Under the pieces are notes generated by a model that did not search any database, was not told where the DNA came from, and saw only the letters and a program-made list of their open reading frames with translations. The position numbers and the translations under genes were made by a program. From sequence record PQ850597.1: 47,021 nucleotides of DNA. One strand, given 5' to 3'. This DNA comes from Escherichia phage ChristineMuster_Bas80. Below, one piece after another: positions 612-44,717 of the stretch. Every line of letters begins with the position of its first letter. The first letter of the stretch is position 1.

Positions 612-633
612 ATCTACGTCTATGTGTTAAAAT
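612..633 (+). promoter_or_regulatory. Putative promoter: ATCTACGTC motif followed by extended -10 TGtTAAAAT
   Basis: atctacgtc at 612-620, TG at 625-626, TAAAAT at 628-633; about 35 nt upstream of the 670 start codon. Confidence 0.4.
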
Positions 634-669
634 TAGCGTATGTGAGTTACTCAAAGAACACAAAAAGAC

Positions 670-1113
670 ATGGCGAATCCAAATCCAAAACACAAGTTTT
701 CCTCTACAAATCAACCGCCTCCGCGCGGTAAGAGTTATCGCACAGTGCTGCTTGAGGCGCTTCGTGCTGCAAATACACCGATGAATGAGATTGAATTCGT
801 CACGTATTACATCAATAGGGCCATGACATGCGAAGACGCTCAGGCAACTGGTATGCTTCGAGAGATATTCCTGCGGCTCAACCCAATTCCTAAGCCTGTA
901 GCTCCTCCTGTGGAGTTTGACTTCCCTGCTGACGGAACTCCGGTTCAGAAAATGGATGCAATCATCAAGGGTGTCTCCACTGGCGTCGTGCCTGCTGACA
1001 TCGGCAAGATGATGGCTGACATTATCAAGTCTGGCCTTGATATTCAGGAAATCACCGAACTCGCAGCGCGACTTGAGCGACTGGAGAAATTACTGGAGCA
1101 GCAGAATGCGTGA
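670..1113 (+). CDS. Putative terminase small subunit
   Basis: 147-aa ORF immediately upstream of the large terminase gene; assignment by position only. Confidence 0.45.
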   Translation: MANPNPKHKFSSTNQPPPRGKSYRTVLLEALRAANTPMNEIEFVTYYINRAMTCEDAQATGMLREIFLRLNPIPKPVAPPVEFDFPADGTPVQKMDAIIKGVSTGVVPADIGKMMADIIKSGLDIQEITELAARLERLEKLLEQQNA

Positions 1114-1253
1114 TGTTGTTACGTGGTGTTTTGTGGCATCTATCGCCATGAGCATGATTAGCGCCATTATGCCATCAGGGGATTTTGCTGGCAGCATATT
1201 CGCATTTATGTTCTGGATATCAGGATGGGTTATCGCTTGGGGACGGGTTCGAT

Positions 1254-2675
1254 ATGGCTCGTAAACGCCTCTCTGCACTGGCAATCGAAAAACTGGAAGC
1301 GCAGATTGATGATGCAATGACAGATGTCGCCGAGTCAGCCATCTTTGGCATCTGCGATATGCAGAAGAACGTCATTAAGCGGTTAAGGATGACTGCTACT
1401 GGCGTTGATGACGTGACCAATGCAACCACTCATGCCGACCACCTGATTCCAGCAAAGCTGGAGCGATTGCTTTACCCGAAGCCGTGGAAGGTTGTTTATG
1501 GTGGCCGTGGGTCGGCAAAGACCCGCACAGTATCGACAATCCTTACCGAGTCGGCAAGGTTCAAATCAGAGCGTATCGGGTGCTTCCGAGAGATTCAGCA
1601 ATCAATTGAAGACTCCAGTTATCAGGAACTGGTGGACGAGATTGATCGCAAAGGAGAATCAAAAGAGTATCGCTGCATTGATGGCAAGATTACCCACAAG
1701 AAGACTAAATCAAAGTTCAGGTTCCGTGGCCTTTATCGCAACGTGACTGGCGTTAAGGGTTTTGCTGGTATCACGAAGGCATGGATTGAGGAGGCTGAAA
1801 ACGTCAGTCAGGCATCATGGGATATTCTTGAGCCTACCGTGCGTAACCCCGGCGCTGAAATATGGGTAACATTTAACCCTAACAAAGAAACCGACGCCAC
1901 ATGGACGCGCTGGGTGGCTCCGTGGCACGACAAAATGGTAAACGGAATTTACGAGGATGATGAAATACTCATCATTGAGTGTAACTGGACCGATAACCCG
2001 TGGATGACAGAGGAACTAATCCGCTCAAAAGATAAAATGAAGCGCGTAGATTTCGACCGCTACATGTGGATATGGGAGGGCAAATTCAACAAGCGCAGCG
2101 ACGAGCAGGTCTTCGGTGGTAAATGGCGCATTGATAACTTTGAGGTCAAACCTGAATGGCATGGTCCATACTTCGGGATGGACTTCGGATTCAGTACGGA
2201 CCCTACCGCAATGGTTGAGGTTTACATCGAAGAATTACCAGGTGGACGGCGCAATATTTATATTAATCGCGAGTACGGCAAGGTTGGTCTTGAGATTACC
2301 GATACGCCAGCCGCAATGGAGCAATCATTCCCGATGGCTAAGCGCGCTCGATGGTATGCCGACTGCGCTCGACCAGAAACTATCAGTCACATCAAGCGTT
2401 CTGGGTTCGATATTCACCCATGCACAAAATGGCCGGGAAGCGTTGAAGATGGCGTTACGTGGCTGCGCGGCTGTGACAGAATCGTCATTCACGAACAATG
2501 CAAGGAAATGCAGAATGAAGCGGCAATGTACAGCTATAAGGTTGATAAGCTGACAGGGAATGTGCTGACTGATATTGTTGATGCATATAACCATTACTGG
2601 GATGCTGTTCGCTACGCCCTCAATGACCATATCGTTCAGCGCGGTAGCGGAATGCTAATCCGGCGCAGGCGATAA
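1254..2675 (+). CDS. Terminase large subunit
   Basis: About 470-aa product with Walker-A-like VVYGGRGSAKTRT near the N-terminus and an acidic-residue-rich C-terminal nuclease-like half; follows small-subunit candidate. In-frame ATG at 1185 is an alternative start. Confidence 0.8.
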   Translation: MARKRLSALAIEKLEAQIDDAMTDVAESAIFGICDMQKNVIKRLRMTATGVDDVTNATTHADHLIPAKLERLLYPKPWKVVYGGRGSAKTRTVSTILTESARFKSERIGCFREIQQSIEDSSYQELVDEIDRKGESKEYRCIDGKITHKKTKSKFRFRGLYRNVTGVKGFAGITKAWIEEAENVSQASWDILEPTVRNPGAEIWVTFNPNKETDATWTRWVAPWHDKMVNGIYEDDEILIIECNWTDNPWMTEELIRSKDKMKRVDFDRYMWIWEGKFNKRSDEQVFGGKWRIDNFEVKPEWHGPYFGMDFGFSTDPTAMVEVYIEELPGGRRNIYINREYGKVGLEITDTPAAMEQSFPMAKRARWYADCARPETISHIKRSGFDIHPCTKWPGSVEDGVTWLRGCDRIVIHEQCKEMQNEAAMYSYKVDKLTGNVLTDIVDAYNHYWDAVRYALNDHIVQRGSGMLIRRRR

Positions 2676-2681
2676 AAAAAT

Positions 2682-2705
2682 AAAGCCCTCAATCGAGGGC
2701 TTTTA
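2682..2705. terminator. Rho-independent terminator (bidirectional candidate)
   Basis: gccctc-aatc-gagggc hairpin at 2685-2700 followed by TTTT, preceded by A-run; lies between convergent genes. Confidence 0.6.
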
Positions 2706-2831
2706 TCATCCTGTCATAACACTCAATATTTGACTTTGCCATTACTGTTTCTGAAAGTGAATGATAAACTTTTTCTTTATCATGAATGTCAATGCACTCC
2801 GCTTTTAACAGGGCGCAAATTGATTCAAATC

Positions 2832-3044
2832 TTAAAACATCGACGATAGAGTTTTCACACATGCTCTCAATTTCTCCAGGGTGCTCAAGCCATCTGTATT
2901 TGTCTGATTCATGATTTCCAGGCGATCTGAAGGGGTTAAGTAACCGTTCCAGATATCGTTAGCAATCTCCAGTTTTCCAGCGACATAACCAAATTCAGAG
3001 TTTTCATTTATGATTTTTTCAGCAACTTCAATTAAGTTAATCAT
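2832..3044 (-). CDS. Hypothetical protein (70 aa)
   Basis: ORF with ATG at 3044 preceded by GAGGAAAG RBS; track start at 3059 is a TTG and less likely. Confidence 0.4.
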   Translation of the reverse strand: MINLIEVAEKIINENSEFGYVAGKLEIANDIWNGYLTPSDRLEIMNQTNTDGLSTLEKLRACVKTLSSMF

Positions 3045-3077
3045 TTTTTCTTTCCTCAATTTCGTTTCAATGAGTTC

Positions 3078-3106
3078 ATTCTACGTCACCATTGAATCCA
3101 CGTCAA
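3078..3106 (-). promoter_or_regulatory. Sigma70-like promoter TTGACG-17-TAGAAT (minus strand)
   Basis: Reverse complement of 3101-3106 is TTGACG, 17-nt spacer, reverse complement of 3078-3083 is TAGAAT; about 30 nt upstream of the 3044 start. Confidence 0.5.
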
Positions 3107-3143
3107 CATTTATTATTATTGCTGATAAATCCGCATCACACGC

Positions 3144-3183
3144 TTGACCAATCTACACCGAGCGCATAGTATAATCTACATCA
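3144..3183 (+). promoter_or_regulatory. Putative promoter with perfect -10 TATAAT flanked by ATCTACA motifs
   Basis: TTGACC at 3144-3149, atctacacc at 3151-3159, TATAAT at 3170-3175, atctacatca at 3174-3183; -35 to -10 spacing of 20 is non-canonical. Confidence 0.4.
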
Positions 3184-3203
3184 GGCTTACCGGAGACATC
3201 ACT

Positions 3204-3410
3204 ATGCGCAGCTATGCAGGATTCACACAGGAGGAAAAAGAACAGGTTTATTCACTGGCACGAGCTGGTGTGCCTGACGAGGTAATTTGTCGTCGGTATG
3301 ACATCGACGAGGATTTTCTGCTGCGCGTTATTGATGATGTCTTCGTTAACCTGCAAGAGAAGCGCGGGTATAAGGGTATCTGCTGCAAGAATGATTTTTT
3401 GAGAGGGTGA
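3204..3410 (+). CDS. Hypothetical small protein, possible helix-turn-helix
   Basis: ATG at 3204 preceded by GGAG; 68 aa; segment QVYSLARAGVPDEVICRRYDI resembles an HTH. Confidence 0.4.
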   Translation: MRSYAGFTQEEKEQVYSLARAGVPDEVICRRYDIDEDFLLRVIDDVFVNLQEKRGYKGICCKNDFLRG

Positions 3411-3414
3411 TGTG

Positions 3415-3609
3415 ATGCTTAAGATAAGCAAGATGAGCAACAGAAGCAAGATCGGAAGGATTGCTTTACTGCCATTTTTTGTTCCTGTGTGGTTGTTGTG
3501 GGTTTTATTTTCTGGTGCAAGAAGTTTATTTGAGTATCTTGAGTTTTGGCAGAAAAATGTTATGCGAAAATTCCATGATGTCATTGATAAGTGGTTTCCG
3601 ATTGGTTGA
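3415..3609 (+). CDS. Small membrane protein (one predicted TM)
   Basis: 64-aa ORF with hydrophobic stretch IALLPFFVPVWLLWVLF; GAGGGTG RBS. Confidence 0.4.
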   Translation: MLKISKMSNRSKIGRIALLPFFVPVWLLWVLFSGARSLFEYLEFWQKNVMRKFHDVIDKWFPIG

Positions 3610-3851
3610 GGTGATGTGATGACAAGAAAATAGGTTCACGAATATTCTATTGCAGTCAGAAAGCGCGTCGAAGATGTATGGACGAATCATGGATTACGCA
3701 GCAATAGAGCCAAATTGGTTGCAAAATGCCATCAAGTCGTAAGTGGTGACAGGATTGAGTGTTACGCGTTTAATCAGTGGATGAAGTCTGGTGTTGTGAA
3801 TAAGGAATAATTATATCAGCACTGCACACTTCATAATCAACATTACCACCA

Positions 3852-3886
3852 TGCTATAATCCCATCCAACGTGATGGGATTTTTTA
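3852..3886 (+). promoter_or_regulatory. Extended -10 promoter (TGcTATAAT) overlapping a hairpin plus T-tract
   Basis: TGcTATAAT at 3852-3860; stem atcccatc (3859-3866) / gatgggat (3873-3880) followed by TTTTT; directly upstream of portal start. Confidence 0.45.
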
Positions 3887-3896
3887 TTGGTGACAT

Positions 3897-5309
3897 ATGT
3901 CAAAAATTGATGCACTAAACGCCTATATACGCGACCGCGTGGCGAACAATGACCGGGCGCTTCAGCAACAACGGCTTTGCGCTGGCGGGAAGAATCTTGA
4001 CCAGAAACGTGAGTTCATGTGGAAGGAGCTGGGATACCCGCAGGAAATCACTGCCGAGATGTTCCGCTATGCCTATGAGCGACATCCAGCTGCTGCCGCT
4101 GGCATTAACCGCATTATTAATAAATGCTGGCAGAAATACCCTGAAGTAGTTGAAGATGGCGAGGACGACAAGAACTCAACGTCGTGGGAAATGTCCATCA
4201 ATGACATGTTGAAGCGCGCCTATCCGTTCATCAAAGAGGCCGACAAGCGCAACGCTATCAACCGCTATTCCGCTGTGATACTGCAAATCCGTGATGGTAA
4301 GCAATGGAGTGAGCCGGTAGACATCACCAAAACACGCCGCATTAAAGATAAATCCATCGTCCGCTTTATTCCTGTGTGGGAGGAGCAGCTCAAAGTCAGT
4401 GCGTGGAATAACGATGAAGCCAGCGAAGACTACGGCATGCCTGAGATGTACGAATACCAGGAAAGCGCCGTGGAAGATTTCGATAGCGACGGCAAACCTG
4501 AACGTTCAGTGCAGATTCATCCTGACCGCATCATCATTCTGGCTGAGGGTAGCTTTGACGGCAGCATGTTCAGCGGCATCCCGATGCTGCGTGCTGGCTA
4601 CAACAGCCTTATCGACATGGCTAAAGTTTCCGGCAGTTCTGCGGAAGGATTCCTGAAGAATGCAAGCCGACAGCTGGCTGTTAACTACACGAAGGATAAC
4701 GTAACGCCAGCAAGCCTAGCTCAGTCGATGGGAGTCGATATTGAAGAACTCACCGACATCATGAATGAGAACATTGAGGCGCTGAACTCAGGGATTGACG
4801 CAGCCATGTTCACAATGGGGGCTGATGCTAAGGTTCTTGCTGTGACACCAGCTGACCCGAAACCCACATGGGAAGTTGCTGCCAACCAGTTCGCTGCATC
4901 AATGGCGCTTCCGTTCACCGTCATTTTCGGGCAGCAAACCGGACGCCTTGCGAGTGATGAAGACAAGATGCAGGAGGCGATGACTGCCAAGCAGCGCCGA
5001 GAAACATGGGTGGATTATGTTATCTCAATGTTCGTTGAGCGCATGATTCAGTTCGGCATCGTCGATAAAGCACCGGCAAATGGCTACAAGGTTAAGTGGG
5101 ACGACCTGCTTGCTCCATCAGAGCTGGATAAGGCGGAGTTGCTGTCTAAGCTCGCCACTGCGAACAAGTCGTTCTTTGATGCTGGTCAATCTGCGTTGCT
5201 TACCGTCGATGAGGCTCGCGGCATGGTTGGTATGGAGCCGATTGAACTTGATGAAAGTTATCGCGAAGACACACCACTGGAAGATGAAAATGAAGATACT
5301 CCGGTTTAA
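3897..5309 (+). CDS. Portal protein (putative)
   Basis: 470-aa ORF following terminase genes, acidic C-terminus, followed by Mu-F-like head gene; assigned by size, order and general portal-like character. Confidence 0.65.
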
Positions 5310-6243
5310 CGCCAGACTACCCCAGCCGCGCATATCGCAGAGCCTGACCGACCCGTTAGGCGCTGCAGCCCGCCTGTCGAAAATGGACAAGGTGATAACG
5401 CGCAAATACAAACAACTCAGGACTCGTTCGCTTGAGTTGTTTCGCACCATTCCGAGCAGTCAGACCAACGCAGAATCAAGTGGTCTGTATTTCTACGATT
5501 TCAGTAGTGCGCGTGCCGCTACGTTCATGGATGAGTTACAGGAGCTGGTTGACGAGATTCTGCTGGAAGGTGATGATTTCGGTCACGGCAGGATGTGGGC
5601 TAATATGTTCATTGGTGATGCGTATCAGGCCGGGACGCAGAAGGCAAACTCAGAACTATCAAGTCTGTCTCCGGTTTATGCTGAACAGCGACCGATTGCT
5701 GCAATACTCTACAGTGAGCCATATCTGAATCGGCTGCGGCTTGCGTATACAGCTGGTTACTCGGACTGGCGAGGATTGAGTGATTACTCACGCCAACAAC
5801 TGGCATCCGTCATTATGGAAGGCATTGCCCGTGGTGCCAATCCTCGAGATGTTGAGGCTGATATTGTTAAGCGTGTTGACGTGTCACATAGTTACGCGAA
5901 GCAGATAGCGCAGACTGAAATCACCGGAACGCTGCGGCAGGCTAACAGGAGAGAAGTCATTGAGGCTCGCGAGGAATTAGGTATTGAAACGGTGATGCTG
6001 TGGCAATCGGCATTATTGCCTGGTCGAACGAGATTTACTCACGCGGCACGGCACGGGCGGTTTTACGCGCCAGAGGAGATTGACACGTTCTATAGCGAGA
6101 ATGGCAATAGATATAATTGCCACTGTGCACAAGTACCAACATTGATAATGGATGGCAAGCCAGTCATTCTTGAGTCGTCGCAGGAAAGGCTTGATAAGCA
6201 GCGTGAAGCGTGGCAATCAGCCAATAAAAAGCCCTCTAAGTGA
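5284..6243 (+). CDS. Head morphogenesis protein (Mu F / SPP1 gp7-like)
   Basis: ATG at 5284 in frame with track ORF 5080-6243 and overlapping the portal 3' end; C-terminal half has Mu-F-family character (…[20 protein letters not shown]…). Confidence 0.7.
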
Positions 6244-6256
6244 GGGCTTGTTTTTA
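6230..6256. terminator. Rho-independent terminator (bidirectional candidate)
   Basis: agccctc-taagt-gagggct hairpin (6230-6248) followed by tgttttt. Confidence 0.6.
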
Positions 6257-6326
6257 TCTTATCAGCATGCACAGAACAAATACTATTATCGCATAGCACA
6301 ATATCTCTACGACGCTGAATATTGTT

Positions 6327-6935
6327 TTAATCATCAAGTTTCACGCCGGGAATTTTGCCTGCTGCGATGGCTTCATAAATTAGCTTAGCCTCATCCTCGC
6401 GCTTGTAATCTTGCGCTACCATTTCTAATACCGCGCAGATAGATTCAAGTACAGCCTCATGCTTCCTTTCTGCTTCTGTGCGAAATGGGATGAAAACATC
6501 CTTATTGGATGGGGTTATTGCGTAGTAAATCTCACCAGATGGTCTGATAACTATTTTTTCGCCATCAAGACCAATAACCTTGACTTTTCCCCATGACGTT
6601 CCGTTGCTGATATACTCACATTCACACCCAACTGGCGGCAGTCCTTCTCCGTTCCATGCTGAATTTTTCGATGCTGCGAGCGCTGCTTTGTATTGCCAAT
6701 AGGTTACTATCGACTCCTTATGGTCGGAAGATAATGGCGTAGCCCATTCTTCTCCATACCAGAAATGCACAAGGCTATTTCCTGTGTGATGTTTCCATGA
6801 GAACCCCTCATAGTGTGGGTCATTTGTGTCCCATGCGCACAGCGAACCGTCATTATCTTGAGTAATTGACAGCGCGTTTTGAGGCCACCCACCGCGCTTA
6901 GGTAATTCTTGAACCAGTAAATCAATAAGCTTCAT
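6327..6935 (-). CDS. Hypothetical protein (202 aa)
   Basis: ATG at 6935 (MKLIDLL...) preceded by AGGAG; overlaps stop of upstream HNH gene. Confidence 0.5.
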   Translation of the reverse strand: MKLIDLLVQELPKRGGWPQNALSITQDNDGSLCAWDTNDPHYEGFSWKHHTGNSLVHFWYGEEWATPLSSDHKESIVTYWQYKAALAASKNSAWNGEGLPPVGCECEYISNGTSWGKVKVIGLDGEKIVIRPSGEIYYAITPSNKDVFIPFRTEAERKHEAVLESICAVLEMVAQDYKREDEAKLIYEAIAAGKIPGVKLDD

Positions 6936-7407
6936 AATTAAAATCTCCTGCGTATTTAATTCTCGCCTCTTGCGACACAAGCTCTGCCAGCTCAATGTCT
7001 TCGTAGTAGCCCAGATGGATCTGTGTTTTATTTACGCATATCCTTACTCGCCATGAATTTCCGGCAGGATACCAGCTGACTCCCTTCATCCCTGTTTTGT
7101 TTCTGGATGTGATATCCTTGTTGTGCTTATTTTCAGATGAAGTGCATGGCCTTAAGTTGCATAATCTATTGTCATCTCTCACCCTGTTAATATGATCCAC
7201 CTCCTTTGGCATCTCTCCTGTCACGTATAGAAGAGCAAGCCTGTGCGCAAGATAAAGCTTTCCATCAATGCAGATCTGTATGTACCCTTTCCCATTTACC
7301 GACCCAGCCTTTCGACCGCTAAACCCATGTCTTCTTGATTTAATCCACGTGAATTCACCAGATTCAGGGTTATAACTAAGAACACGGAAAAGATCACATT
7401 GTTTCAT
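6922..7407 (-). CDS. HNH endonuclease with AP2-like DNA-binding region
   Basis: Motifs GYIQICIDGKLYLAHRLALLYVTGEMPKEVDHINRVRDDNRLCNLR typical of HNH_3-type homing endonucleases; GGGAGA RBS. Confidence 0.7.
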   Translation of the reverse strand: MKQCDLFRVLSYNPESGEFTWIKSRRHGFSGRKAGSVNGKGYIQICIDGKLYLAHRLALLYVTGEMPKEVDHINRVRDDNRLCNLRPCTSSENKHNKDITSRNKTGMKGVSWYPAGNSWRVRICVNKTQIHLGYYEDIELAELVSQEARIKYAGDFNYEAY

Positions 7408-7700
7408 TTTGTTTCTCCCAATGCTTTATTAACCGCCTCACGCGCATTATCCAGAGCGCGACGCTTGCTTGATGTTGTCCAGACTTTGCCGTCTGCAGAA
7501 TCGTAGCATTCAATCATTTGCTGCGTAGCAATAATCAATTCGGAAATAAGCATGTCGCGATATGCTAACTCAGCAGCAATAGCTGATTTTGAGTGCAATG
7601 ATTCAGAGCTCATGGCGCTAACATGCTGGGAATAAAAGCCACCAATTTCATCAAGGATATCTATATCCCGCTCTGCATACAGATTATTGCTGTCAGTCAT
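7404..7700 (-). CDS. Hypothetical protein (98 aa)
   Basis: ATG at 7700 overlaps upstream stop (ATGA); track start at 7724 also possible. Confidence 0.4.
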   Translation of the reverse strand: MTDSNNLYAERDIDILDEIGGFYSQHVSAMSSESLHSKSAIAAELAYRDMLISELIIATQQMIECYDSADGKVWTTSSKRRALDNAREAVNKALGETK

Positions 7701-7840
7701 TTGATATACTCCATAATCTCGCATTCACGCATCTGCACCAGACTAAATGGTGCAACCACTTTTCCGCACGGACGGATTTTGATTTGCTCAAAATTGAACA
7801 CTTCGCAGCGTCCGTTTTCTTTGAATTTGACCATTACCAT
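7697..7840 (-). CDS. Small hypothetical protein (47 aa)
   Basis: ATG at 7840 with GAGGAA RBS; stop overlaps next start; below the ORF-track length cutoff. Confidence 0.3.
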   Translation of the reverse strand: MVMVKFKENGRCEVFNFEQIKIRPCGKVVAPFSLVQMRECEIMEYIK

Positions 7841-7862
7841 AATTTCTTCCTCACTCATCGTT

Positions 7863-7919
7863 TGATGTAGATACTATGCACCACCACTCAATCTACGTCA
7901 ATAGCCATTGTGATAGAAT
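7863..7919. promoter_or_regulatory. Divergent promoter region with inverted ATCTACRTCA motifs
   Basis: tgatgtagat at 7863-7872 (reverse orientation) and atctacgtca at 7891-7900, then extended -10 TGaTAGAAT at 7911-7919 for the plus-strand lysis genes. Confidence 0.5.
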
Positions 7920-27195: not shown

Positions 27196-27222
27196 AGCCC
27201 CGCTATTGCGGGGTTAGCTTTT
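27196..27222. terminator. Hairpin terminator candidate overlapping the stop of the minus-strand gene
   Basis: gccccgc-tatt-gcggggt hairpin then T-rich tract. Confidence 0.5.
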
Positions 27223-28078
27223 CTATCTCCAGCATCAACCTTGGTGTTTTTATTACCCATTCCGTACACCCATCAAACCCAGAAAATCCAGCTCTCTGGA
27301 ATTCATTGTGAAATCTTGATTCTATGCTTGCGGCAGTCATGCCATTTGTTTTTATTATCTTGATGATATCGAATTGAAATGGCGTATCTCTGGTTAATTT
27401 CCTTATCCTCTCTGCTTTATTATGAGTTACACCAATCTTTACCGCCCCAGCTGATACGGAAACAAGAAAGTAAACATATGCCGTTTTGTTTGTCCTCTTA
27501 AACCCATAATCAGCGCATTCAGGGCATCCCTTTCCAGACATATGATCGGAAGTGAATTGCAAAAATTCCCCATGCTTACGGCATATTATTTTAACCTTAA
27601 CCCTAGAATTAACGAATGAATCAACATCATATTGATAAGCGAACGAGTGAACTATATTTGATTTTCTCACAAAAATATCAAACGTTAACTTCCTGTTCTT
27701 GCTGCATGATGGACATCCTGCTCCTGCCATATGATGACTTCTTCTTTGAGTGAATACGCCGTGCTCTCTGCATATTATCTTGATATTTTCTGAAGATACC
27801 TCACCTTCAACCAGGTAATAATCATATTTACATTCATGAATTTCATTAAACCTCTCAATCAGGGAGTGCAGTTTGATTTTTCTTGATTCACGCCCACACA
27901 ACCTGCACCCTCCAACCAAATGAGCGTCAGGCCTTTGTCTAAACTCCCCATGCTCCCTGCAAATTATTGTTAATTTTGTTTTAGCGTCAAAATAAACAGA
28001 TTTTGAGTAATCATATTTGTCGCCGTGCGTGAGCCTTGCACGGCGAATGAATTCTTCAGTAGTTAATCGCTTGCGCAT
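27203..28078 (-). CDS. Zn-ribbon-repeat protein with C-terminal T5orf172/GIY-YIG-like domain (homing-endonuclease-like)
   Basis: Three tandem repeats of about 57 aa each with YDYS and C..HG.F...H..G.GCP.C; C-terminal YVYFLVSVSAGAVKIGVTHNKAERIRKL block. Confidence 0.5.
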   Translation of the reverse strand: MRKRLTTEEFIRRARLTHGDKYDYSKSVYFDAKTKLTIICREHGEFRQRPDAHLVGGCRLCGRESRKIKLHSLIERFNEIHECKYDYYLVEGEVSSENIKIICREHGVFTQRRSHHMAGAGCPSCSKNRKLTFDIFVRKSNIVHSFAYQYDVDSFVNSRVKVKIICRKHGEFLQFTSDHMSGKGCPECADYGFKRTNKTAYVYFLVSVSAGAVKIGVTHNKAERIRKLTRDTPFQFDIIKIIKTNGMTAASIESRFHNEFQRAGFSGFDGCTEWVIKTPRLMLEIEKLTPQ

Positions 28079-28175
28079 TTGAATCCTCGGTTAAAGGTGG
28101 TTTGAAGTGATGCAGCAGACGATAACCAATCGCTTTTCGGACGCCTCCTAGCTGCATGTTAATTATACCATGGCA

Positions 28176-28184
28176 TGCTAAAAT
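28176..28184 (+). promoter_or_regulatory. Extended -10 promoter TGcTAAAAT
   Basis: Identical 9-mer to the 19634-19642 element; 25 nt upstream of the 28210 ATG. Confidence 0.45.
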
Positions 28185-28209: not shown

Positions 28210-29580
28210 ATGCCTATACCTTACCCCAGCTGGTTACCTTTACCACAAAGAGCCAACAAGAATTTAACATTCCAAACCCCATTCAGACAGGATGTTCCTG
28301 CTGTTGGCGCGCCTATTTTTCAAAAATTAACGACTGATATAAGTTCGCAGTGGTCACTGACGTGGAAGTTCACGCTGGTACAGGAGTGCGCATTCATCCA
28401 GTGGTTGCGTAGCCCGAGCTACCTCAACAAATGCAACAACTGGTTCACCATGATGATTGACCTCGGCGGTAGCGGATTGCAGGAGCAGACACTGCACTTT
28501 ACCGATTATCCTGTGCAAACCAGTATTGATGGTGGTGTGGTTACGTGGACTGGCAATGTTATCGCCAAGAAAATCAATAACACGATGGATGAGTTTGATG
28601 ATGTTCTGGTTGAGCTTGATTACAGATGGTATAGCTGGCTGGATGAAGTTGTTAACCGTGAACTTCCGCAAGTCTATATGACACCGATACTGCATATGCC
28701 AATCAACATGCTGTCATCTACGCTTGATAGCCGCATTGTTTACGACGGACCACAGGTTTACTACGTCAACAGAAGCGGCAATCTTGTGCAGTCCTCCGCC
28801 GGTGAATGGCCTCTTACGTTTATTGATGGGGTTGCTGTTGGGCGTGTACCGCCGGAAAAGGCGGCTACCAATGTGGTAGAACATTCTAACAACTTACTAT
28901 CTACATCATTTTCGCGCGCCAGAACAACAACTACGGCGAGTTCTTTGAAGTTATTCCAAGAAACTTATGCCGCTAAATTAACCGCAACGTCGGTATCAGA
29001 TAACCATTATATAAACCAGAGGGTGGCTCCAGCACCGGGAACAAGGTATTCTCTTAGCGTTATCATGAAAGCAGATGAGCACCAGTCGGCAGCGGTAGCC
29101 ATCGGCAACCGAGCCGCTTTAGATAATTTCCAGTATGCCTATGTTGACTTAGCCTCTGGCGATTTGATATCAGGCGACACCTCAAGGTCGTTTGTAAGCA
29201 ATATTGGTGGAGGGTGGTATCACGTTTCAATGGCTGCGGACACTAACGACTCTGGAGGATTGATTTATTCTCAGATAAACATGTTGTCGCCGTCTAACTC
29301 CCTCACCTTCATGGGGGATGGTGTCAGCGGCTTCAATGTGGCTCTAATTCAATTGGAGGCATCGCCATTTGCCTCGTCCCCGATAGTAACCGAATTGTCA
29401 CCAGGAACACGCACGACGGCATCCGCAAAAGTAGTAATGAACGGCGCAACCAGTATAGACATTACCTATTCCGACGGCTCTGTGGTAAACGTTACGTCTG
29501 TTGACGGTTACGCCACCGTTCCACAGGCCGATTCCGCGTGGGGTAGTAAGTACATCACAACAATAAAATTCAACGTCTGA
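28210..29580 (+). CDS. Minor tail protein (distal tail component) with C-terminal extension
   Basis: 456-aa ORF right after tape measure region, GGAG RBS. Confidence 0.45.
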   Translation: MPIPYPSWLPLPQRANKNLTFQTPFRQDVPAVGAPIFQKLTTDISSQWSLTWKFTLVQECAFIQWLRSPSYLNKCNNWFTMMIDLGGSGLQEQTLHFTDYPVQTSIDGGVVTWTGNVIAKKINNTMDEFDDVLVELDYRWYSWLDEVVNRELPQVYMTPILHMPINMLSSTLDSRIVYDGPQVYYVNRSGNLVQSSAGEWPLTFIDGVAVGRVPPEKAATNVVEHSNNLLSTSFSRARTTTTASSLKLFQETYAAKLTATSVSDNHYINQRVAPAPGTRYSLSVIMKADEHQSAAVAIGNRAALDNFQYAYVDLASGDLISGDTSRSFVSNIGGGWYHVSMAADTNDSGGLIYSQINMLSPSNSLTFMGDGVSGFNVALIQLEASPFASSPIVTELSPGTRTTASAKVVMNGATSIDITYSDGSVVNVTSVDGYATVPQADSAWGSKYITTIKFNV

Positions 29581-37427: not shown

Positions 37428-37456
37428 AATCTACATCAATCCACATCGAAAGGCAA
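37428..37456 (-). promoter_or_regulatory. Putative internal promoter TTGCCT-17-TAGATT (minus strand)
   Basis: Reverse complement of 37428-37433 is TAGATT with ATCTACATCA motif at 37429-37438; lies within the 3' end of the VRR-NUC gene. Confidence 0.4.
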
Positions 37457-37891
37457 GCCAAAATAGGTCAACACTGCAATCTTTATCTGGTCGAGTCCAC
37501 ACGCCACCGCAGAGAATGCACCAGCGCTGGCGCTATCGTTGAGAAACGGTATCTGTCCTGGTTGCCATTTGCTAAGCGTTGAATCATGGCGCTTCAACTC
37601 TATCGTCGCTTTATGCCACTTCACACCAGGCGTCAGGATTATCACATCAGACACCCCTGACCTGACACCTTTCCTTGCGCGCGATGACAGATGCTGCACT
37701 GAGTTGCTTTTAGTCTCCTGAGATGGATGGAACCACAGCACATCAGGAAACCGATAATCCATCCACCACTTAAACGCTATCAAGTCTGAATCCTCATGCG
37801 GACACTCGCCACGGTAACCTTCATCAAAAATTAATACCTTGTCACTCAGCTCATGCTGCTTGAATCGCTTTTTCACTATTCTCTCCTGCAA
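37436..37891 (-). CDS. VRR-NUC domain nuclease (putative)
   Basis: GVSDVIILTPGVKWHKATIELKR matches the D...E.K core pattern of VRR-NUC proteins. Confidence 0.5.
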   Translation of the reverse strand: MQERIVKKRFKQHELSDKVLIFDEGYRGECPHEDSDLIAFKWWMDYRFPDVLWFHPSQETKSNSVQHLSSRARKGVRSGVSDVIILTPGVKWHKATIELKRHDSTLSKWQPGQIPFLNDSASAGAFSAVACGLDQIKIAVLTYFGLPFDVD

Positions 37892-39797: not shown

Positions 39798-39805
39798 TTC
39801 ATCAC

Positions 39806-40507
39806 CTATGGCATGTCAGGCCAATAAGAGTTGCTTTTAGATCTGTTTTCACTTGGTGCAAGTAATTGCAAGTTATGCCAGCAGTGAAGGCCGCAAACCA
39901 ATTTACTATTTATTGGCACTATGTGATCAACTTGCATACCAAGAACGCCAGCCATCTCATAAACCTTTTCAATTAAAACCCTTTCATGTTCAAACCATGA
40001 TGGTATCGCCCGTCTTTTAAGATACTTATATTTACGCTGATGATATCTAACAACACCCTTGTTTTTCTGTCTCCACTGTTTTGACTTCTCGTTGTGCTTT
40101 TCCTTGTTTTCATTGTAATACTTCTTTGATTTTGCGTTTATCTTGTTCTTATTTGCTGCGTAATTACCTTTCTTGAACTCTGATTGGCACTTCTTACATT
40201 CAGGCCTAAGACCATCAAGTGATGATTTGTTTTTATTGAAGTTTTCTTCATTTGCATCAAGAACTGAGTTGCATTTAGAGCATACTTTCCTTCCATCAAC
40301 AAGATATCTCAGCCTTTTACCTTTGTTTCCATCGCATGATTTACAATGAGATTTTAAACCAAGCCTCATCTTCTTATCTGAGTAGAAGTAATCACTTGTT
40401 GCAGGAAGCATTAAATTGCATCTTGAGCATTTCTTTTTTGTCCCTGTGCTTGCGCAACCTGCACTTTCCTGAGCAACATTTTGCTTTTGCAGTTCCGATA
40501 AACTCAT
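39806..40507 (-). CDS. HNH homing-endonuclease-like protein with CxxC repeats
   Basis: C-terminal VDHIVPINSK...CWHNLQLL...ENRSKSN core, preceded by CSRC...CKSC and CSKC...CKKC pairs; start at 40507 has a GAGG RBS; track start 40579 also possible. Confidence 0.55.
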   Translation of the reverse strand: MSLSELQKQNVAQESAGCASTGTKKKCSRCNLMLPATSDYFYSDKKMRLGLKSHCKSCDGNKGKRLRYLVDGRKVCSKCNSVLDANEENFNKNKSSLDGLRPECKKCQSEFKKGNYAANKNKINAKSKKYYNENKEKHNEKSKQWRQKNKGVVRYHQRKYKYLKRRAIPSWFEHERVLIEKVYEMAGVLGMQVDHIVPINSKLVCGLHCWHNLQLLAPSENRSKSNSYWPDMP

Positions 40508-40544
40508 TTCCGCAAACCTCGCACTTCTTAACGGTGATAGCCAT
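40392..40544 (-). CDS. Small Zn-ribbon ORF in alternate frame overlapping the HNH gene 5' region
   Basis: ATG at 40544 with AGAGGA RBS; product has CEVCG...CCSGKC; frames meet at an A6 run. Confidence 0.35.
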   Translation of the reverse strand: MAITVKKCEVCGNEFIGTAKAKCCSGKCRLRKHRDKKEMLKMQFNASCNK

Positions 40545-40651
40545 TTCTTGTCCTCTATTGTAACGATTAATTGTTTCATTTCAAGTAACGATTGATTGTT
40601 TCATGTGAGTAAATTACAATGATTCTACATCATCGTCAACAGGAAGATTTT

Positions 40652-41605
40652 ATGAGATACGACTGGAAAGATATTGAGCCAAAAATGCTTGGCAATTGGC
40701 AAGCTGCCATCATGTCTATCGTCAATGTGGATAGCAGAGTTTTCAATGGCAAGCACCAGCCATGCCCGTCATGCTCAGGAAAAGACAGGTATCGCTTTGA
40801 TGACAACTTCGAAACAAAAGGCGATGGCGGCGCAATCTGCAATCAGTGCGGTTCCGGCAGCGGCATGAATTGGCTGATGAAACTCTCCGGAATGAGCTTT
40901 CCTGAAGCGCTGGAGGCACTTGGTGGATTCCTGAATATGCACCCGCGTGAAAAGCTGGAGGCAATCAGGAAGGAGTTACCGAAGATAAATTACAACGATG
41001 ACTTCGTCACAGAGCAGGAAGTCGCCGCAATCATGGCTAAAACGACGCGTGTCGCGATGAATGAGTGGACTTTGATAAATGGTATTGGTTGCGACGTTAA
41101 CGTCACCAGAGGCAAATCTGGAGAACTTATTGCGGTTGAGATGATGCGAGCTGACACAATGAAACTGTGCAACGTGGCATTCATTGGCATGGATGGTGAT
41201 TCAATCAGAACGTTTTTCCGCGCAGGATACAACAAGGACTCAGCCATCAACGGCAAACTCACGCGCGGCGCGATAAGCCCAATCGGAGAAGACAACGGGA
41301 AGTTCATTTACCTGGTATCTGATTATGCCGATGCGTGGAAGTGCCATTACTTCACTGGCGCGCATGTCTGGTGCTGCTGGTCGCCGGAAAACATGTGGGA
41401 AGTGGTGCGCTCTGTTAGCAATGAGATGAAGTCACGGTTACGCTGCATAGTTAATTATAAATTTGACGAACTTTGCGCTGCGGAAAACGCAGGGATTCCG
41501 GTGATGCTTCCTGATGATGCCGACACTATCAGGATGGCAAAGAGAATCAGGAGAAAGATTTATGACGCTGGCGAGTTGATAGAAAAAATGTCAGTCAACA
41601 GATAA
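40652..41605 (+). CDS. DNA primase-like protein with N-terminal zinc-binding domain
   Basis: CPSCSGKDRYRFDD...GGAICNQCGSG pattern typical of phage/plasmid primase zinc-binding domains; AGGAAG RBS. Confidence 0.55.
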   Translation: MRYDWKDIEPKMLGNWQAAIMSIVNVDSRVFNGKHQPCPSCSGKDRYRFDDNFETKGDGGAICNQCGSGSGMNWLMKLSGMSFPEALEALGGFLNMHPREKLEAIRKELPKINYNDDFVTEQEVAAIMAKTTRVAMNEWTLINGIGCDVNVTRGKSGELIAVEMMRADTMKLCNVAFIGMDGDSIRTFFRAGYNKDSAINGKLTRGAISPIGEDNGKFIYLVSDYADAWKCHYFTGAHVWCCWSPENMWEVVRSVSNEMKSRLRCIVNYKFDELCAAENAGIPVMLPDDADTIRMAKRIRRKIYDAGELIEKMSVNR

Positions 41606-41609
41606 AAGA

Positions 41610-41636
41610 AACCCTCCATATGGAGGGTTTTTTGTT
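41610..41636. terminator. Rho-independent terminator (bidirectional candidate)
   Basis: aaccctcca-ta-tggagggtt hairpin followed by TTTTGTT. Confidence 0.65.
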
Positions 41637-42051
41637 ATTTCTTGAACTCTGGTGCTTCAGTCCAGAAGGCTACATTTCGCAGAGACTTACTCGTGTGATT
41701 GCACCAGTATATTCCTGAGTCATCATACTTGGCAGTAACCTTGACGCGATCAGTATCAATAATAACAACCTCCTGCCCATCTTTAGGGTCGAAAAGACGC
41801 GCATCCTTCCAGTTAGCAATCTCATTAAGGGAAAGAAGAACATAGCCTGGAAGATAAGCGCCGACATCAGCAATGTGAACTATTGTTCGCTCCGTTCTCT
41901 CTCCTGTGTAGTCGCCATTCCACTCATAAAGAATAACCGTGTCTCCAACCTTAAAATCACGATCGTTCTTCCTTAGTTCCGCCTTCTTGTGTCCGGTAAC
42001 AACAGGCCAGAAGTGCTCAGGTAAGATTTTTAGTTCGTGTGTTTTGCTCAT
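41635..42051 (-). CDS. ASCH-like / DUF3850-like protein
   Basis: N-terminal HELKILPEHFWPVVTGHKKAELRKNDRDFKVGD pattern recalled for DUF3850. Confidence 0.5.
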   Translation of the reverse strand: MSKTHELKILPEHFWPVVTGHKKAELRKNDRDFKVGDTVILYEWNGDYTGERTERTIVHIADVGAYLPGYVLLSLNEIANWKDARLFDPKDGQEVVIIDTDRVKVTAKYDDSGIYWCNHTSKSLRNVAFWTEAPEFKK

Positions 42052-43643
42052 TTCAACCCCCTCATAAATCTCATGCGCTTAACAGCAGCAGAAAGATAAT
42101 TTCTAACCGTTGAGTTCATTCGCAGTCCATCCCATGAACCATCGCTGCACATCTTAATCGCTCTTGGGTTATCTCTGTCCAGCATTAGTGGTGAATGCTT
42201 ATTCTCCTCAATCGCAAGAAGAACCTCATAAACAAATTTATCAGGTGTTAGTGTGATGTTATTAGAGTCAGCAGAATTAATTATCTTTTTAATTCTATCA
42301 CGACACAGCTTGTTCTTTATAACAGACAAGTAAGGCGTTTTAATGAATGCCTGTGACTCACAAATTCGCTTAATTTTTTCTACAATGTTCTCCCATTCAG
42401 TATTTTCAAGTCCATCAAACTCCTGTTCGCCCTCAAGGAATCTTTGCAGACCAGCGAGATGCTCAAGAACCACGATATATCCCCATTCGACATGCTCCAT
42501 CGTAACTGCTGGCGTCATTCCACGGCGACTTGACAGATCTGCGTAAGCCGCAAGAGTTGCAAGGTCTACAATCATCAGCCCCATGCGCGGGATAACGTCA
42601 CCAACAACACCATCGCGATCTCCAAGCTCACTTTCCAGTTTCATAGACAGAGATCTGTGCAGCTTTTTCACTTCATCATCAGCCCATACAGCGTTAGTTT
42701 TCGCGGTAAGAATCCTACCTTTCCACTCATTGATTATTTTTCTTGAAATTGTGCCGCTAACTTCCACATCCTTCATCGCTGGCATTTCCTCACCAGCAAG
42801 ATGTCCAAGCTGGAACAGCACTCGCCCCATACCGCCATCTTTCTGCCATGAACGCGCAGCATCTATTCCCTGCTCTGGAGTGACAGTAATCAGCGGAACA
42901 AATTTTGCGTTTTCAATTCCACCGTCTTTTGTTGCAATTTCGTATTCATTCATTGCCGACTTGAGCGCGCGACCAACGCTGTGGTCCATCATCGCAAGGC
43001 GCTTATAATCTATGACGCCTTTACCATCATCACCACCAGTGAGTGGAACTATCCATCCCTCAGCGCTTGCTGCCGCCATAATGCGTTTTTGGTTTTGTTC
43101 CCAAGTAAGGTTTTCAAGCAACTCCTTTATTATTGGCCTGTTAGGAACCCACACTCCGCCGTCAGTAAGACCTCTATACCACGCCATAGTGCCGCCAAGA
43201 TATGCATTACGCGGGTTGTTCCAGTCTTCAAGATGTTGCTTATCATCGTTCACAACGTAGAGCAAAGACCCACCTCCAGCAATAAGGTCTAACTGCATCT
43301 GTTTTGTCGAGGTTGATTTAGATGCGCAAACTCTGGACCCTATTCCCAGCGCGTTGGCATATGCCCTGACGAAACTCACCGGCGCACCCTTACCTGCACC
43401 AGAGCGAGCTACCAGAAATATGCCGGTATTGCAGATACTACCTGTTGGACCAATCAAATATCGGCCAGCCATCGCCTGAGTAAGGCCCAATGCACCAGTT
43501 AAACGATACCTCTCACCATCATTACGGCGCTCAAAGTTTTTCGCAATCTCATCCATAAACTCACCAAGTGCACCAGGAGCATCCCTATTCATACCCATAG
43601 CCATGGACTCAAAATCAATAGCGCCCATCAATATACCCTCCAT
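42048..43643 (-). CDS. Hypothetical protein (531 aa), possible P-loop NTPase
   Basis: Long ORF in replication block; Walker-A-like ARSGAGKG and hydrophobic-DD segment LLYVVNDD; function unknown. Confidence 0.45.
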   Translation of the reverse strand: MEGILMGAIDFESMAMGMNRDAPGALGEFMDEIAKNFERRNDGERYRLTGALGLTQAMAGRYLIGPTGSICNTGIFLVARSGAGKGAPVSFVRAYANALGIGSRVCASKSTSTKQMQLDLIAGGGSLLYVVNDDKQHLEDWNNPRNAYLGGTMAWYRGLTDGGVWVPNRPIIKELLENLTWEQNQKRIMAAASAEGWIVPLTGGDDGKGVIDYKRLAMMDHSVGRALKSAMNEYEIATKDGGIENAKFVPLITVTPEQGIDAARSWQKDGGMGRVLFQLGHLAGEEMPAMKDVEVSGTISRKIINEWKGRILTAKTNAVWADDEVKKLHRSLSMKLESELGDRDGVVGDVIPRMGLMIVDLATLAAYADLSSRRGMTPAVTMEHVEWGYIVVLEHLAGLQRFLEGEQEFDGLENTEWENIVEKIKRICESQAFIKTPYLSVIKNKLCRDRIKKIINSADSNNITLTPDKFVYEVLLAIEENKHSPLMLDRDNPRAIKMCSDGSWDGLRMNSTVRNYLSAAVKRMRFMRGLK

Positions 43644-43918
43644 ACTCGCAAGAATTTGCCAGGGATAATACCTTGTTTCACAGTTACCACCGCACCAGCC
43701 CTGTCAGCCTCAATTTTTATCGCCTTCTGAAGTGACGTCATTGTCATCTGAAAACCTCGCTCTATATCGTATGCGTAGCACCCATCTCTTCCACCAATCA
43801 AAATTGAAGTTGAATACCCGTTCTCAAAGTAAAACTGACACCCATCAGGAGCTGTAAGATTATTTATCACGTCGTGAGCAAGAGATGTCGTGACAGGGAA
43901 TATCTGAGCGCAACTCAT
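43628..43918 (-). CDS. Hypothetical protein (96 aa)
   Basis: ATG at 43918 with GGAGGT RBS. Confidence 0.4.
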   Translation of the reverse strand: MSCAQIFPVTTSLAHDVINNLTAPDGCQFYFENGYSTSILIGGRDGCYAYDIERGFQMTMTSLQKAIKIEADRAGAVVTVKQGIIPGKFLRVWRVY

Positions 43919-43920
43919 AC

Positions 43921-44160
43921 CTACCTCCACCCCATGTGTAACAATAAAATTTCGTCTTTATCAACATTCACCAACACCTTGATACCCATATCCCTTGAAA
44001 CAATACTGACATTTGTTCGAAAACTCGGTAACCCCATCGCGCGCGCACGTTCCCAATCTTCACCACAAACAAACCACCCATCATGCGTTCTCCTCAGGCG
44101 CTTAAGTAACCCGTACACCCACTCAAGATTTGACCCTTTACGGTAATTTAGTTCTTTCAT
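43921..44160 (-). CDS. Hypothetical protein (79 aa)
   Basis: ATG at 44160 with GGAGGTAAGT RBS; first gene after the iteron region on the minus strand. Confidence 0.4.
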   Translation of the reverse strand: MKELNYRKGSNLEWVYGLLKRLRRTHDGWFVCGEDWERARAMGLPSFRTNVSIVSRDMGIKVLVNVDKDEILLLHMGWR

Positions 44161-44260
44161 ACTTACCTCCATCTCCAGTGACTCTAATTTTATATAAATA
44201 AAAAAGATATGCAATTCTAATATGTGCTGGCTGTACAGTTTGGCTAATTTTTGCTCGATT

Positions 44261-44618
44261 TATACCGTCTTTACCTGGTTTTTACCGTGCTATTTTTGAT
44301 GCAACTAATTGATTAATAAGATTTTACCGGTTTTACCGGATTTCTTAAGTGGTATTTTAATTATTAAGATTGGCAGTGTATTAATTTGATCTAATTTTAA
44401 TAAACTTAAATAAAATCAATATATTAATATGAATGAATAACTTACTTACCTCTATAGAATTTACCGGGTAAAACCGGTAACTCCTCCGCAAGCCGCGCCA
44501 TTGCTGGCTTCATTTTTACCACCTGTAGGTAAATACAGTAGTTTTTAAGTGATAATTGTTTTGGTAAGCTGTTGATTACCGGTGCTTTATTTAAAAAACC
44601 GGCATTTACCGGTATTTT
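44261..44618. repeat. Iteron array: at least 10 copies of TTTACCGG-like 8-9-mers flanking an AT-rich core
   Basis: Copies at about 44263, 44271, 44281, 44323, 44332, 44461, 44471 (inverted), 44514, 44576, 44597 (inverted) and 44605; AT-rich stretch 44341-44460. Confidence 0.6.
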
Positions 44619-44688
44619 GTGGAGTGATTAATAAGTGCGCAATTAGTCCTTGTTTACCAGAATCAACAAGTGCGAAACCTAAATAATG

Positions 44689-44717
44689 TTGACGTAGAAA
44701 CATCATTGATGTAGATT
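44689..44717 (+). promoter_or_regulatory. Sigma70-like promoter TTGACG-17-TAGATT driving the early plus-strand genes
   Basis: TTGACG at 44689-44694, 17-nt spacer, TAGATT at 44712-44717; two tandem TTGAYGTAGA half-sites 17 bp apart. Confidence 0.55.

Follow-up and report, generated by a model that had tools for sequence, protein, structure and literature searches.

A dispersed, promoter-embedded 11-bp motif as a putative operator family in Escherichia phage ChristineMuster_Bas80 and related virulent siphoviruses

Escherichia phage ChristineMuster_Bas80 (PQ850597.1) is a virulent, Skatevirus-like siphovirus, and the window analysed here, the whole stretch of 47,021 bp, is the size of a complete genome. 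A short asymmetric word, WWTCTACRTCA, recurs along this window as a dispersed, promoter-embedded family of putative operators, which is well supported as a cis-element. The word is enriched, lies mostly between genes, is conserved past the sigma-70 hexamers that it overlaps and is restricted to one lineage, in which it is associated with two classes of predicted promoter in a particular geometry. There is about an even chance, judging from the sequence data, that it is a lineage-specific cis-regulatory site of the virulent siphoviruses filed under Skatevirus, Macdonaldcampvirus and Swiduovirus, acting as the operator of a phage DNA-binding protein in an early-to-late switch. No description of the motif was found in the literature available for full-text search.

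The closest relative of this phage is Escherichia phage ClaudiaMuster (Bas77), which has the same start coordinate and is 93–95% identical across about 80% of the length. Bas77–81 have been assigned to a Skatevirus-centred cluster of O-antigen-dependent small siphoviruses (BASEL paper, PMC11990801), and the family has about 205 records in the phage collection. The gene map was obtained by transferring the Bas77 annotation and adding window-specific open reading frames (ORFs); it gives a coding share of 94.2%, with 5.8% of the DNA non-coding.

The original prediction had described a family of ATCTACRYC words at operon starts, and all the positions it gave contain the sequences attributed to them, including 13622–13630, for which only a degenerate copy (GCTACATCT) had been claimed. 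The word is indeed over-represented: ATCTACRYC matches 13 times, against 1.01 expected, and none of 100 shuffled sequences reaches 13. TTGAYGTAGAT, with at most one mismatch, matches 15 times (1.83 expected), and TTGACGTAGATTG is repeated three times, as reported. In an unbiased k-mer scan, TCTACGTCA and ATCTACATCA head the lists of 9- and 10-mers by over-representation, and the motif word ranks second at k = 8 by ratio to expectation. The core of a weight matrix built iteratively from seven related genomes is WWTCTACRTCA (11 bp, about 15 bits); flanking preferences are weak, and the extra T completing TTGAYG is present in only 54% of sites. This core matrix finds 21 sites in the window, versus 1.9 in shuffled sequences (shuffle maximum 6). 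Copies that had been overlooked lie at 3095–3105 and, in degenerate form, at 37438–37448, 24073 and 32931.

The sites are concentrated outside genes, as the original prediction had held: 18 of the 31 matches to a longer matrix are intergenic, in a genome with 5.8% non-coding DNA (binomial P = 5.5e-15). Nor is the motif equally frequent in coding sequence, a finding that would have spoken against a regulatory role, since 14 of the 15 strong matches are non-coding. One strong match (22625) falls inside a doubtful ORF and another (40624) lies upstream of the real primase start; the sole strong copy within a real coding region, detected in both motif and matrix scans, is in g65 (28898–28908, plus strand; match 28900). 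By our reading of the gene map, eight of the nine divergent gene junctions carry the motif, and the one that does not flanks a window-specific, endonuclease-like insertion. At every junction the sites lie no more than a few base pairs from predicted core elements of a promoter, and they are missing from intergenic terminator regions. With respect to annotation, the longest possible primase ORF, from 40619, would include the motif as well as the ribosome-binding site; an ATG at about 40649, after AGGAAG, is the conserved start. Bas77_0083, a 38-amino-acid ORF (44429–44545 in Bas77, 44587–44703 in the window), starts directly on a motif pair, without a ribosome-binding site. Both this ORF and the 40619 start are probable annotation artefacts.

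A generic sigma-70 scan was run independently of the motif, and its best intergenic matches fall on motif sites. It yielded eight motif-containing promoters with 9–10 of 12 matching positions, every one upstream of a co-oriented gene; a ninth canonical promoter was read directly. Nearly every canonical promoter of the sigma-70 type has one or two motif copies within the RNA polymerase footprint. Relative to the promoter that it overlaps, the motif takes at least five registers and either orientation. In the first register, the reverse complement of the motif supplies the -35 element and the first bases of the spacer. This is the case for AATCCACGTCA (3095–3105, plus strand), found by the matrix and the sigma-70 scan, which supplies the TTGACG of the leftward promoter TTGACG-17-TAGAAT (3106–3078, minus strand; 10 of 12 matches); for AATCTACGTCA at 7890–7900 (plus), which supplies that of P(g17), TTGACG-17-CATAGT (7873–7901, minus); and for AATCTACGTCA at 19614–19624 (plus), at the promoter of the operon encoding a ParB-like protein, TTGACG-17-TATAGT (19597–19625, minus), which is the top match of the scan and has hexamers that are invariant in 62 sequences. 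A copy on the minus strand, TTTCTACGTCA (44690–44700), similarly provides on the plus strand the -35 TTGACG of TTGACG-17-TAGATT (44689–44717, plus), a promoter made of two motif copies 17 bp apart.

In the second register, the reverse complement supplies the -10 element, with TGAYG in the spacer. ATTCTACGTCA (3078–3088, plus; matrix and sigma-70 scan) provides the TAGAAT of the promoter at 3106–3078. The variant AATCTACACCA (22623–22633, plus) provides the TAGATT of a leftward TTGACA-17-TAGATT promoter (22651–22623, minus) facing a tRNA-Met region, and AATCTACATCA (24027–24037, plus) that of an identically built promoter (24055–24027, minus) ahead of the sii/g60/g59 operon. AATCTACATCA together with an adjoining degenerate copy, AATCCACATCG (37428–37448, plus), provides the TAGATT of the directly read exoVIII/SSB promoter, TTGCCT-17-TAGATT (37456–37428, minus), and AATCTACATCA on the minus strand (44707–44717) gives, on the plus strand, the TAGATT of 44689–44717, the promoter of the putatively early g84 operon. 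The three promoters at 22623–22651, 24027–24055 and 44689–44717 are those for which a -35 hexamer, a 17-bp spacer and TAGATT had originally been proposed, and all three are present as described.

The other registers involve no such hexamer. In the third, the forward motif lies over the last -10 bases and the start site (TATAAT followed by CTACATCA at 3173; TAGTAT followed by CTACATCAA at 7863, minus strand; TGGTACAAT followed by CTACGTCAA at 10871, minus strand). The copies concerned are AATCTACATCA at 3173–3183 (plus), at P(g05), TTGACC-17-TAGTAT (3144–3172, plus), which is conserved in five relatives; TATCTACATCA at 7863–7873 (minus), at the leftward P(g17); and AATCTACGTCA at 10871–10881 (minus), which overlaps the end of the P(g26) extended -10 element TGGTACAAT (10887–10879, minus). 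The primase copy, ATTCTACATCA (40622–40632, plus), is also forward and lies at the predicted start site of P(primase), TTGATT-17-TACAAT (40592–40620, plus), 4 bp further downstream than the others. In the fourth register, the forward motif lies in the spacer just past TTGACC, as a variant, AATCTACACCG, in P(g05) (3150–3160, plus) and as AATCTACATCA in the g26/g27 divergent region (10844–10854, plus). In the fifth, a reverse copy, TTTCTACGTCA (19583–19593, plus), coincides with the start site predicted for the leftward promoter that serves the ParB-like operon. The genes behind the canonical promoters are small, putatively early genes, genes for anti-restriction, superinfection immunity, recombination and replication, and the operon of the ParB-like protein.

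The second class of predicted promoter consists of extended -10 elements. TGnTA[ATG]AAT occurs 14 times, nine of them intergenic, and the intergenic occurrences on the plus strand, none of which has a -35 element, are each found ahead of a presumably late structural or lysis operon (terminase, portal, lysis, head, head-tail completion, major tail, tape measure and distal tail). The following are on the plus strand: TGTTAAAAT (625–633), for the g02/terminase operon, with the motif copy TATCTACGTCT directly upstream (611–621, plus; positions -29 to -19), conserved in Bas77 and Klebsiella phage VLCpiS13e; TGCTATAAT (3852–3860), upstream of the portal gene and without a nearby motif; TGATAGAAT (7911–7919), for the lysis operon; TGTTATAAT (13636–13644), upstream of g38 and the head genes and preceded by the degenerate copy at 13622–13630; TGCTAAAAT (19634–19642), for the g49/head-tail completion operon; TGATATAAT (22658–22666), for the major tail protein; TGATATAAT again (24067–24075), for the g63/tape measure operon; and TGCTAAAAT (28176–28184), upstream of g65 and the tail genes and without a nearby motif. 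The five elements proposed originally (625–633, 7911–7919, 19634–19642, 22658–22666 and 24067–24075) are among them, and the two modes of association then described, with the reverse complement acting as a -35 or -10 element and the forward strand lying upstream of extended -10 elements, are both supported.

Four junctions combine the two classes back to back (7901/7911, 19625/19634, 22651/22658 and 24055/24067). The leftward canonical -35 element is separated from the rightward extended -10 element by only 9, 8, 6 and 11 bp at the lysis (where the -35 is that of P(g17)), g49 (that of the ParB-operon promoter), major tail and tape measure promoters, respectively, and, because of this gap of 6–11 bp, the polymerase sites overlap. 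The original suggestion of strong bidirectional promoters is thus correct in part: four regions are true back-to-back pairs of predicted promoters, but they are composed of two different promoter classes rather than of a symmetric element.

Two predicted promoters are followed by terminator-like features. The promoter TTGGCA-18-TACAAT (509–538) is followed by a hairpin and a T-run ending at 611, and is conserved in the Klebsiella relatives; a hairpin (3858–3881) with a T-run directly follows the extended -10 element at 3852–3860, just before the portal gene. These promoter-terminator pairs (509–611 and 3852–3890) may be small RNAs or attenuators.

In the main rival explanation, the word would simply be the shared core of the strong host sigma-70 promoters of this family (-35 TTGACG, -10 TAGATT), spread by duplication and kept for promoter strength, with no dedicated binder. 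This explanation, which we consider doubtful, accounts for the nine sites used as hexamers and agrees with the independent recovery of eight motif-containing promoters by the sigma-70 scan. Two copies placed 17 bp apart form a complete promoter at both 44689–44717 and 3106–3078, and G(A/G)YG directly upstream of TAnAnT is common to several -10 regions, including a motif-like TGGTGTACAAT at 528–538. It has more difficulty with the pattern of conservation. In an alignment of the ParB-like operon/g49 region, comprising 62 distinct sequences, the invariant elements are the start-site copy TTTCTACGTCA, the -10 ACTATA, AATCTACGTCAAC (the -35 element and seven spacer bases) and TATGnTAAAAT, the late extended -10 element. 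The TAGAT following the -35 element and the start-site copy are thus fixed, whereas the other ten spacer bases of the ParB-operon promoter vary freely. The G at -10 and the A at -9 are invariant, in contrast to the late promoters, among which TAAAAT, TATAAT and TAGAAT are all freely used. Moreover, forward copies after the -10 element, copies in the spacer and start-site copies in either orientation cannot be explained by a strand-specific polymerase contact.

Two other junctions are similar. AATCTAC(A/G)(T/C)CA is at least 97% conserved at the sii/g63 junction (62 distinct sequences) and the tRNA/major-tail junction (44), at both of which the left flank of the motif is unalignable between genomes, and the site-specific variant TCTACACCA is itself conserved. 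The primase promoter has one motif copy in the window versus two, 25 bp apart, in Bas77, and such differences between genomes in how many sites a junction has, and where they lie, resemble binding-site turnover. Sigma-70 contacts alone would not seem able to account for conserved spacer and start-site positions in either orientation, which points to a separate sequence-specific binder. The original prediction had offered two readings, a shared operator or selection for strong promoters. The first fits better, with an 11-mer conserved as a unit through spacer and start site in at least five registers, the operator function itself being putative.

The word is also confined to a lineage. In k-mer counts it ranks first or is strongly enriched in Bas77, Vi II-E1, swi2 (14 copies versus 0.58 expected) and Klebsiella phage ZCKp20p (10 versus 0.56), and Klebsiella phage VLCpiS13e has 11 copies of the 9-mer. 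It lies at orthologous promoter regions of the Salmonella, Escherichia and Klebsiella relatives, even at 50–80% coding identity, and is kept in two IMG/VR relatives with proteins about 50–70% identical. A scan of IMG/VR for motif pairs gave mostly unrelated chance matches, among the matches listed. In Kagunavirus Bas73, which has the same host, the motif is not enriched (one copy versus 0.63 expected). The absence of the word from a phage using the same host polymerase is a further argument against a property of sigma-70 promoters as such, and argues against a general host feature. Comparison with the consensus sequences of the common E. coli regulators IHF, DnaA, FNR, MetJ, EvgA, OmpR and RstA gave no convincing match, and a host-factor site was rejected. 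No enrichment was found in a Jilinvirus that has a ParB homologue 43% identical to that of the window; its own repeat, AGATAGTCCCA, forms one local cluster. Jilinvirus ECO1230-10 has seven copies of AGATAGTCCC(A) in a single intergenic region (28512–28768), and five copies of GACAAACCCCAAGAAG are distributed along its late operon, on the transcribed strand.

In another reading, the motif would be a positive element. A motif-bound phage factor could recruit host polymerase to such promoters or redirect it there, on the models of MotA/AsiA at the middle promoters of T4 and p4 at the late A3 promoter of phi29. The lysis and g49 late promoters have the motif at the -35 position, 18–19 bp upstream of TGn, and the g02 and g38 late promoters have it 12–13 bp upstream. 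At 7890–7919 and 19614–19642, as at T4 middle promoters, a phage-specific word stands in place of the -35 element and a good -10 element is kept. MotA boxes occupy a fixed position, at about -30, where they replace the -35 element of promoters with a good sigma-70 -10. Here, the distance from the motif to the -10 element of late promoters varies (12–13, 18–21, 37 and 42 bp), the late promoters at 3852 and 28176 have no motif, and most copies overlap the -10 element or start site of a canonical promoter, a position in which a bound protein would be expected to block polymerase. Pfam scans, which like those of PHROG covered about 30 of the approximately 88 proteins, revealed no MotA, AsiA or sigma-like protein. 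An activating or sigma-appropriating role is quite unlikely; the variable registers fit promoter occlusion, and not a fixed activator position.

An operator within an early-to-late switch would function as follows. Soon after infection, host sigma-70 polymerase would act on the canonical promoters, and a phage protein from one of the operons that they serve would bind the 11-mer inside the polymerase footprint. Once accumulated, this protein would occlude the early promoters, its own included. At the four back-to-back junctions, removal of the competing polymerase would favour the overlapping extended -10 promoters, and these freed promoters would go on to transcribe the lysis and virion genes of the lysis, head-completion, major-tail and tape-measure operons. 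A fine adjustment of late expression may come from the weaker or degenerate motif copies present at the promoters of g02, g38, g63 and the tail fibre.

Only two recognizable DNA-binding proteins, a ParB/KorB-like protein and the MarR-like g31, emerged from the proteins scanned. The best recognizable candidate for the binder is the first, a helix-turn-helix (HTH) protein of the ParB/Spo0J/KorB family of 269 amino acids (18405–19214, minus strand). It matches the Pfam families HTH_ParB (2.5e-11; 44.1 bits, cut-off 22.6) and KorB (4.5e-6; 27 bits, cut-off 22.3), and its matches in the PDB are Spo0J (6e-13), KorB (8qa8, 0.0033), ParB and Noc. This protein is 81% identical in Klebsiella phages, its gene is conserved in about 195 of the approximately 205 family genomes, and the promoter of its own operon has two motif sites. 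The HTH, FGWTNEEIAKKV(G/A)RSVSDVQMHLSL, has a single variable position across all motif-bearing relatives, down to 63% identity, and the recognition helix differs in the Jilinvirus-type homologues of phages without the motif. We nonetheless regard it only as a tentative binder, with a probability well below one half. It seems unlikely that a partner-less ParB/KorB-family protein acts as a genome-wide switch through an asymmetric 11-bp operator in early promoter cores, handing polymerase to late promoters without a -35 element; if it did, a lytic phage would possess a KorB-like regulon, and the ParB family a new way of recognizing its sites.

A second candidate is g05 (3204–3410, plus strand), a family-specific, acidic protein of 68 amino acids with a predicted three-helix bundle (mean predicted confidence, pLDDT, 81.5). 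The best fold matches of its model are nearly all HTH domains, none of them significant (E ≥ 0.67). It is present at full length in all 205 family records, and no deletion mutant lacks it. An essential polymerase-directed factor might be expected to be just such a protein, small, acidic, helical and found in every genome, and this counts in favour of the activator model. The third candidate, g31 (11812–12300, plus strand), is a MarR-like tandem winged-helix protein (PHROG 1687, 1.6e-58; weak Pfam MarR_2 match). The viable 36-kb laboratory mutant seszw_290S (Yuan et al., PMC9825161) lacks g31, g86, Lar and other genes and retains the ParB-like gene and all motif sites. Among the family-conserved non-structural candidates tracked, g05, g26, g34 and g75 (a VRR-NUC nuclease) are present both in this mutant and in the natural Salmonella isolate CHRF_10023.1, and the small proteins g60, g32, g36 and g37, checked in seszw_290S only, are retained there. 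Of the family-specific candidates, g05, g26 and g34 alone occur in all the viable genomes examined. g34 was rejected, its confident helical hairpin model having no DNA-binding fold match. That the binder is one of the small family-specific proteins is a possibility, albeit not a probable one, and the remainder of our estimate falls to a host factor or to no dedicated binder.

Several points weigh against the operator model or against its candidate binders. The promoters are all predicted, and the operator role is read from sequence. Nine of about 17 sites serve exactly as reverse-complement TTGAYG (-35) or TAGAWW (-10) hexamers, and part of their conservation is therefore ordinary promoter selection. 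The footprints of some late promoters (g02, lysis and g49) themselves contain the motif, and simple derepression is therefore an incomplete account of late-gene expression. ParB-family proteins are usually dimers on palindromes, whereas WWTCTACRTCA is asymmetric; the N-terminal box of the ParB-like protein is DGQHRYLGA, not GERRxR; and Pfam scans of the larger unknown proteins, a subset of the total, found no ParA/IncC-like partner. The AAA_24 domain in g71 is of a recombination-associated type. CHRF_10023.1 has only the last 33 ParB-like codons, yet has about 17 motif sites, and g31 can be rejected as the binder on the basis of seszw_290S. No always-present small protein has a significant DNA-binding fold match. 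As a separate observation on this locus of CHRF_10023.1 (1354–2490), a gene for a 104-amino-acid XRE-like HTH protein and an HNH endonuclease gene adjoin the conserved promoter region, and the late extended -10 element TGCTAAAAT of the ParB-like junction is also lost.

A ParB-family protein without a ParA partner, conserved in most of the family, could also be taken as a sign that the sites have nothing to do with transcription, and are dispersed loading or binding sites for this or a host protein in genome organization, replication or nuclease protection, their overlap with promoters being incidental. The lack of any other family-wide repeat is in keeping with such a role: no 10–16-bp palindrome outside coding sequence is common to the five complete genomes, and no other repeated site was found that is common to all the genomes compared. 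A conventional palindromic parS was accordingly rejected. However, the sites coincide with predicted promoter cores at the base-pair level and are missing from terminator regions, the ParB-like gene can be lost, as in CHRF_10023.1, and the origin-like iteron cluster is separate and module-specific. A non-transcriptional role appears very unlikely. A role at the RNA level was rejected: copies serving as -35 or -10 elements are untranscribed, and the region downstream of 22651–22623 is not unusually structured (z = -0.59).

The iteron-like cluster is a second repeat family, TTTACCGG(T), with about ten copies, some of them with ACCGGT palindromes, in the large non-coding region between g81 and g84 (44270–44660). 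These repeats are found only in the window phage and Bas77, along with the g79–g82 module; the corresponding position in Vi II-E1 and in the Klebsiella relatives is occupied by TGCCCCAC repeats. The cluster is probably a module-specific replication origin with iterons. It was rejected as a ParB target, as it co-varies with the g79–g82 module and not with the ParB-like gene.

The putative operator family can be compared with known systems. Like repressor operators in general, it consists of a specific sequence repeated over core promoter elements and conserved as a unit. The stoperators of mycobacteriophages L5 and Bxb1, attributed to Brown et al. 1997, are reportedly asymmetric 13-bp repressor sites dispersed over the genome. 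The present motif resembles them in being a short asymmetric site with about 20–30 copies, in the short intergenic spaces of a siphovirus genome of about 50 kb, with some copies on promoter hexamers and with cluster-wide conservation. L5 stoperators have a single orientation with respect to transcription, lie mostly inside transcription units and block elongation; L5 is temperate, and their binder is the immunity repressor. In the virulent phages considered here, by contrast, nearly all copies are in promoter cores and both orientations are used, forward at 3173, 7863 (minus), 10871 (minus) and 40622, and reverse at 3078, 19614, 22623, 24027, 37428 and 44707.

KorB of the IncP plasmid RK2 is a ParB-family global repressor, and its site, OB, is a 13-bp palindrome. 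As in RK2, a ParB-family HTH protein is encoded, and a dozen or more copies of one site lie at many operon promoters, including that of the putative regulator itself. Other hallmarks of ParB/KorB-parS/OB systems are lacking: the motif, unlike OB, is asymmetric, no conserved palindromic site of 13–16 bp is present, the GERRxR box is replaced by DGQHRY, no ParA/IncC was found in the subset scanned, and the gene is dispensable in one isolate. In the lambda OR and phi29 p4 regions, the operators are palindromic or inverted-repeat sequences, confined to one control region in which their positions are fixed. The motif junctions resemble lambda OR (PR/PRM) and phi29 p4 (A2b/A3) in having back-to-back divergent promoters with (here putative) regulator sites over the early promoter. 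As in phi29, in which the regulator decides which promoter polymerase binds, the late promoter has no -35 element. They differ from both in that one asymmetric word serves about ten separate promoter regions, in registers that vary, and from the T4 middle promoters in their varying spacing, in the position of most copies over the -10 element or start site and in the lack of a MotA/AsiA homologue among the proteins scanned.

Other features were noted in the window. A tRNA-Met (CAT) gene (22061–22137, minus strand) lies antisense within the late plus-strand gene block, and the leftward promoter 22651–22623 may drive it. Between the two, 22342–22615 matches, at 77–95% identity, unannotated DNA of phages that are not related (Ackermannviridae, G7C-like podoviruses, Jilinvirus ep3 and Klebsiella jumbo phages). 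The minus strand of this segment has only sub-threshold Rfam matches resembling transfer-messenger RNA (27.9 bits, versus a gathering score of 47), with a folding z of -0.59, and the ORF annotated there, g57, is truncated relative to Bas77; the segment may be a horizontally mobile element. The homing-endonuclease-like orf291 (27203–28078, minus), with T5orf172/MUG113 domains, is an insertion that separates the tape-measure gene from g65 and that Bas77 does not have; two divergent extended -10 promoters of its own lie at 28162–28184. A second such gene, orf257 (39806–40579, minus), is a homing endonuclease according to the ZCKp20p annotation, and two HNH genes are present at 1–489 and 6922–7407.

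Temporal gene control in small virulent enterobacterial siphoviruses is almost uncharted, and Skatevirus-like phages are candidates for therapy and biocontrol as well as members of the BASEL collection. The motif provides a testable regulatory map for about 200 sequenced genomes, indicating probable early and late promoters, switch points and bases to mutate. In related records, motif sites are overlapped by several tiny ORFs and by one start codon, all of them probably spurious. For genome engineering, deletion of a single junction removes two promoters together with their putative operators. If the ParB-like protein were the binder, the KorB type of global regulation would be extended to lytic phages.

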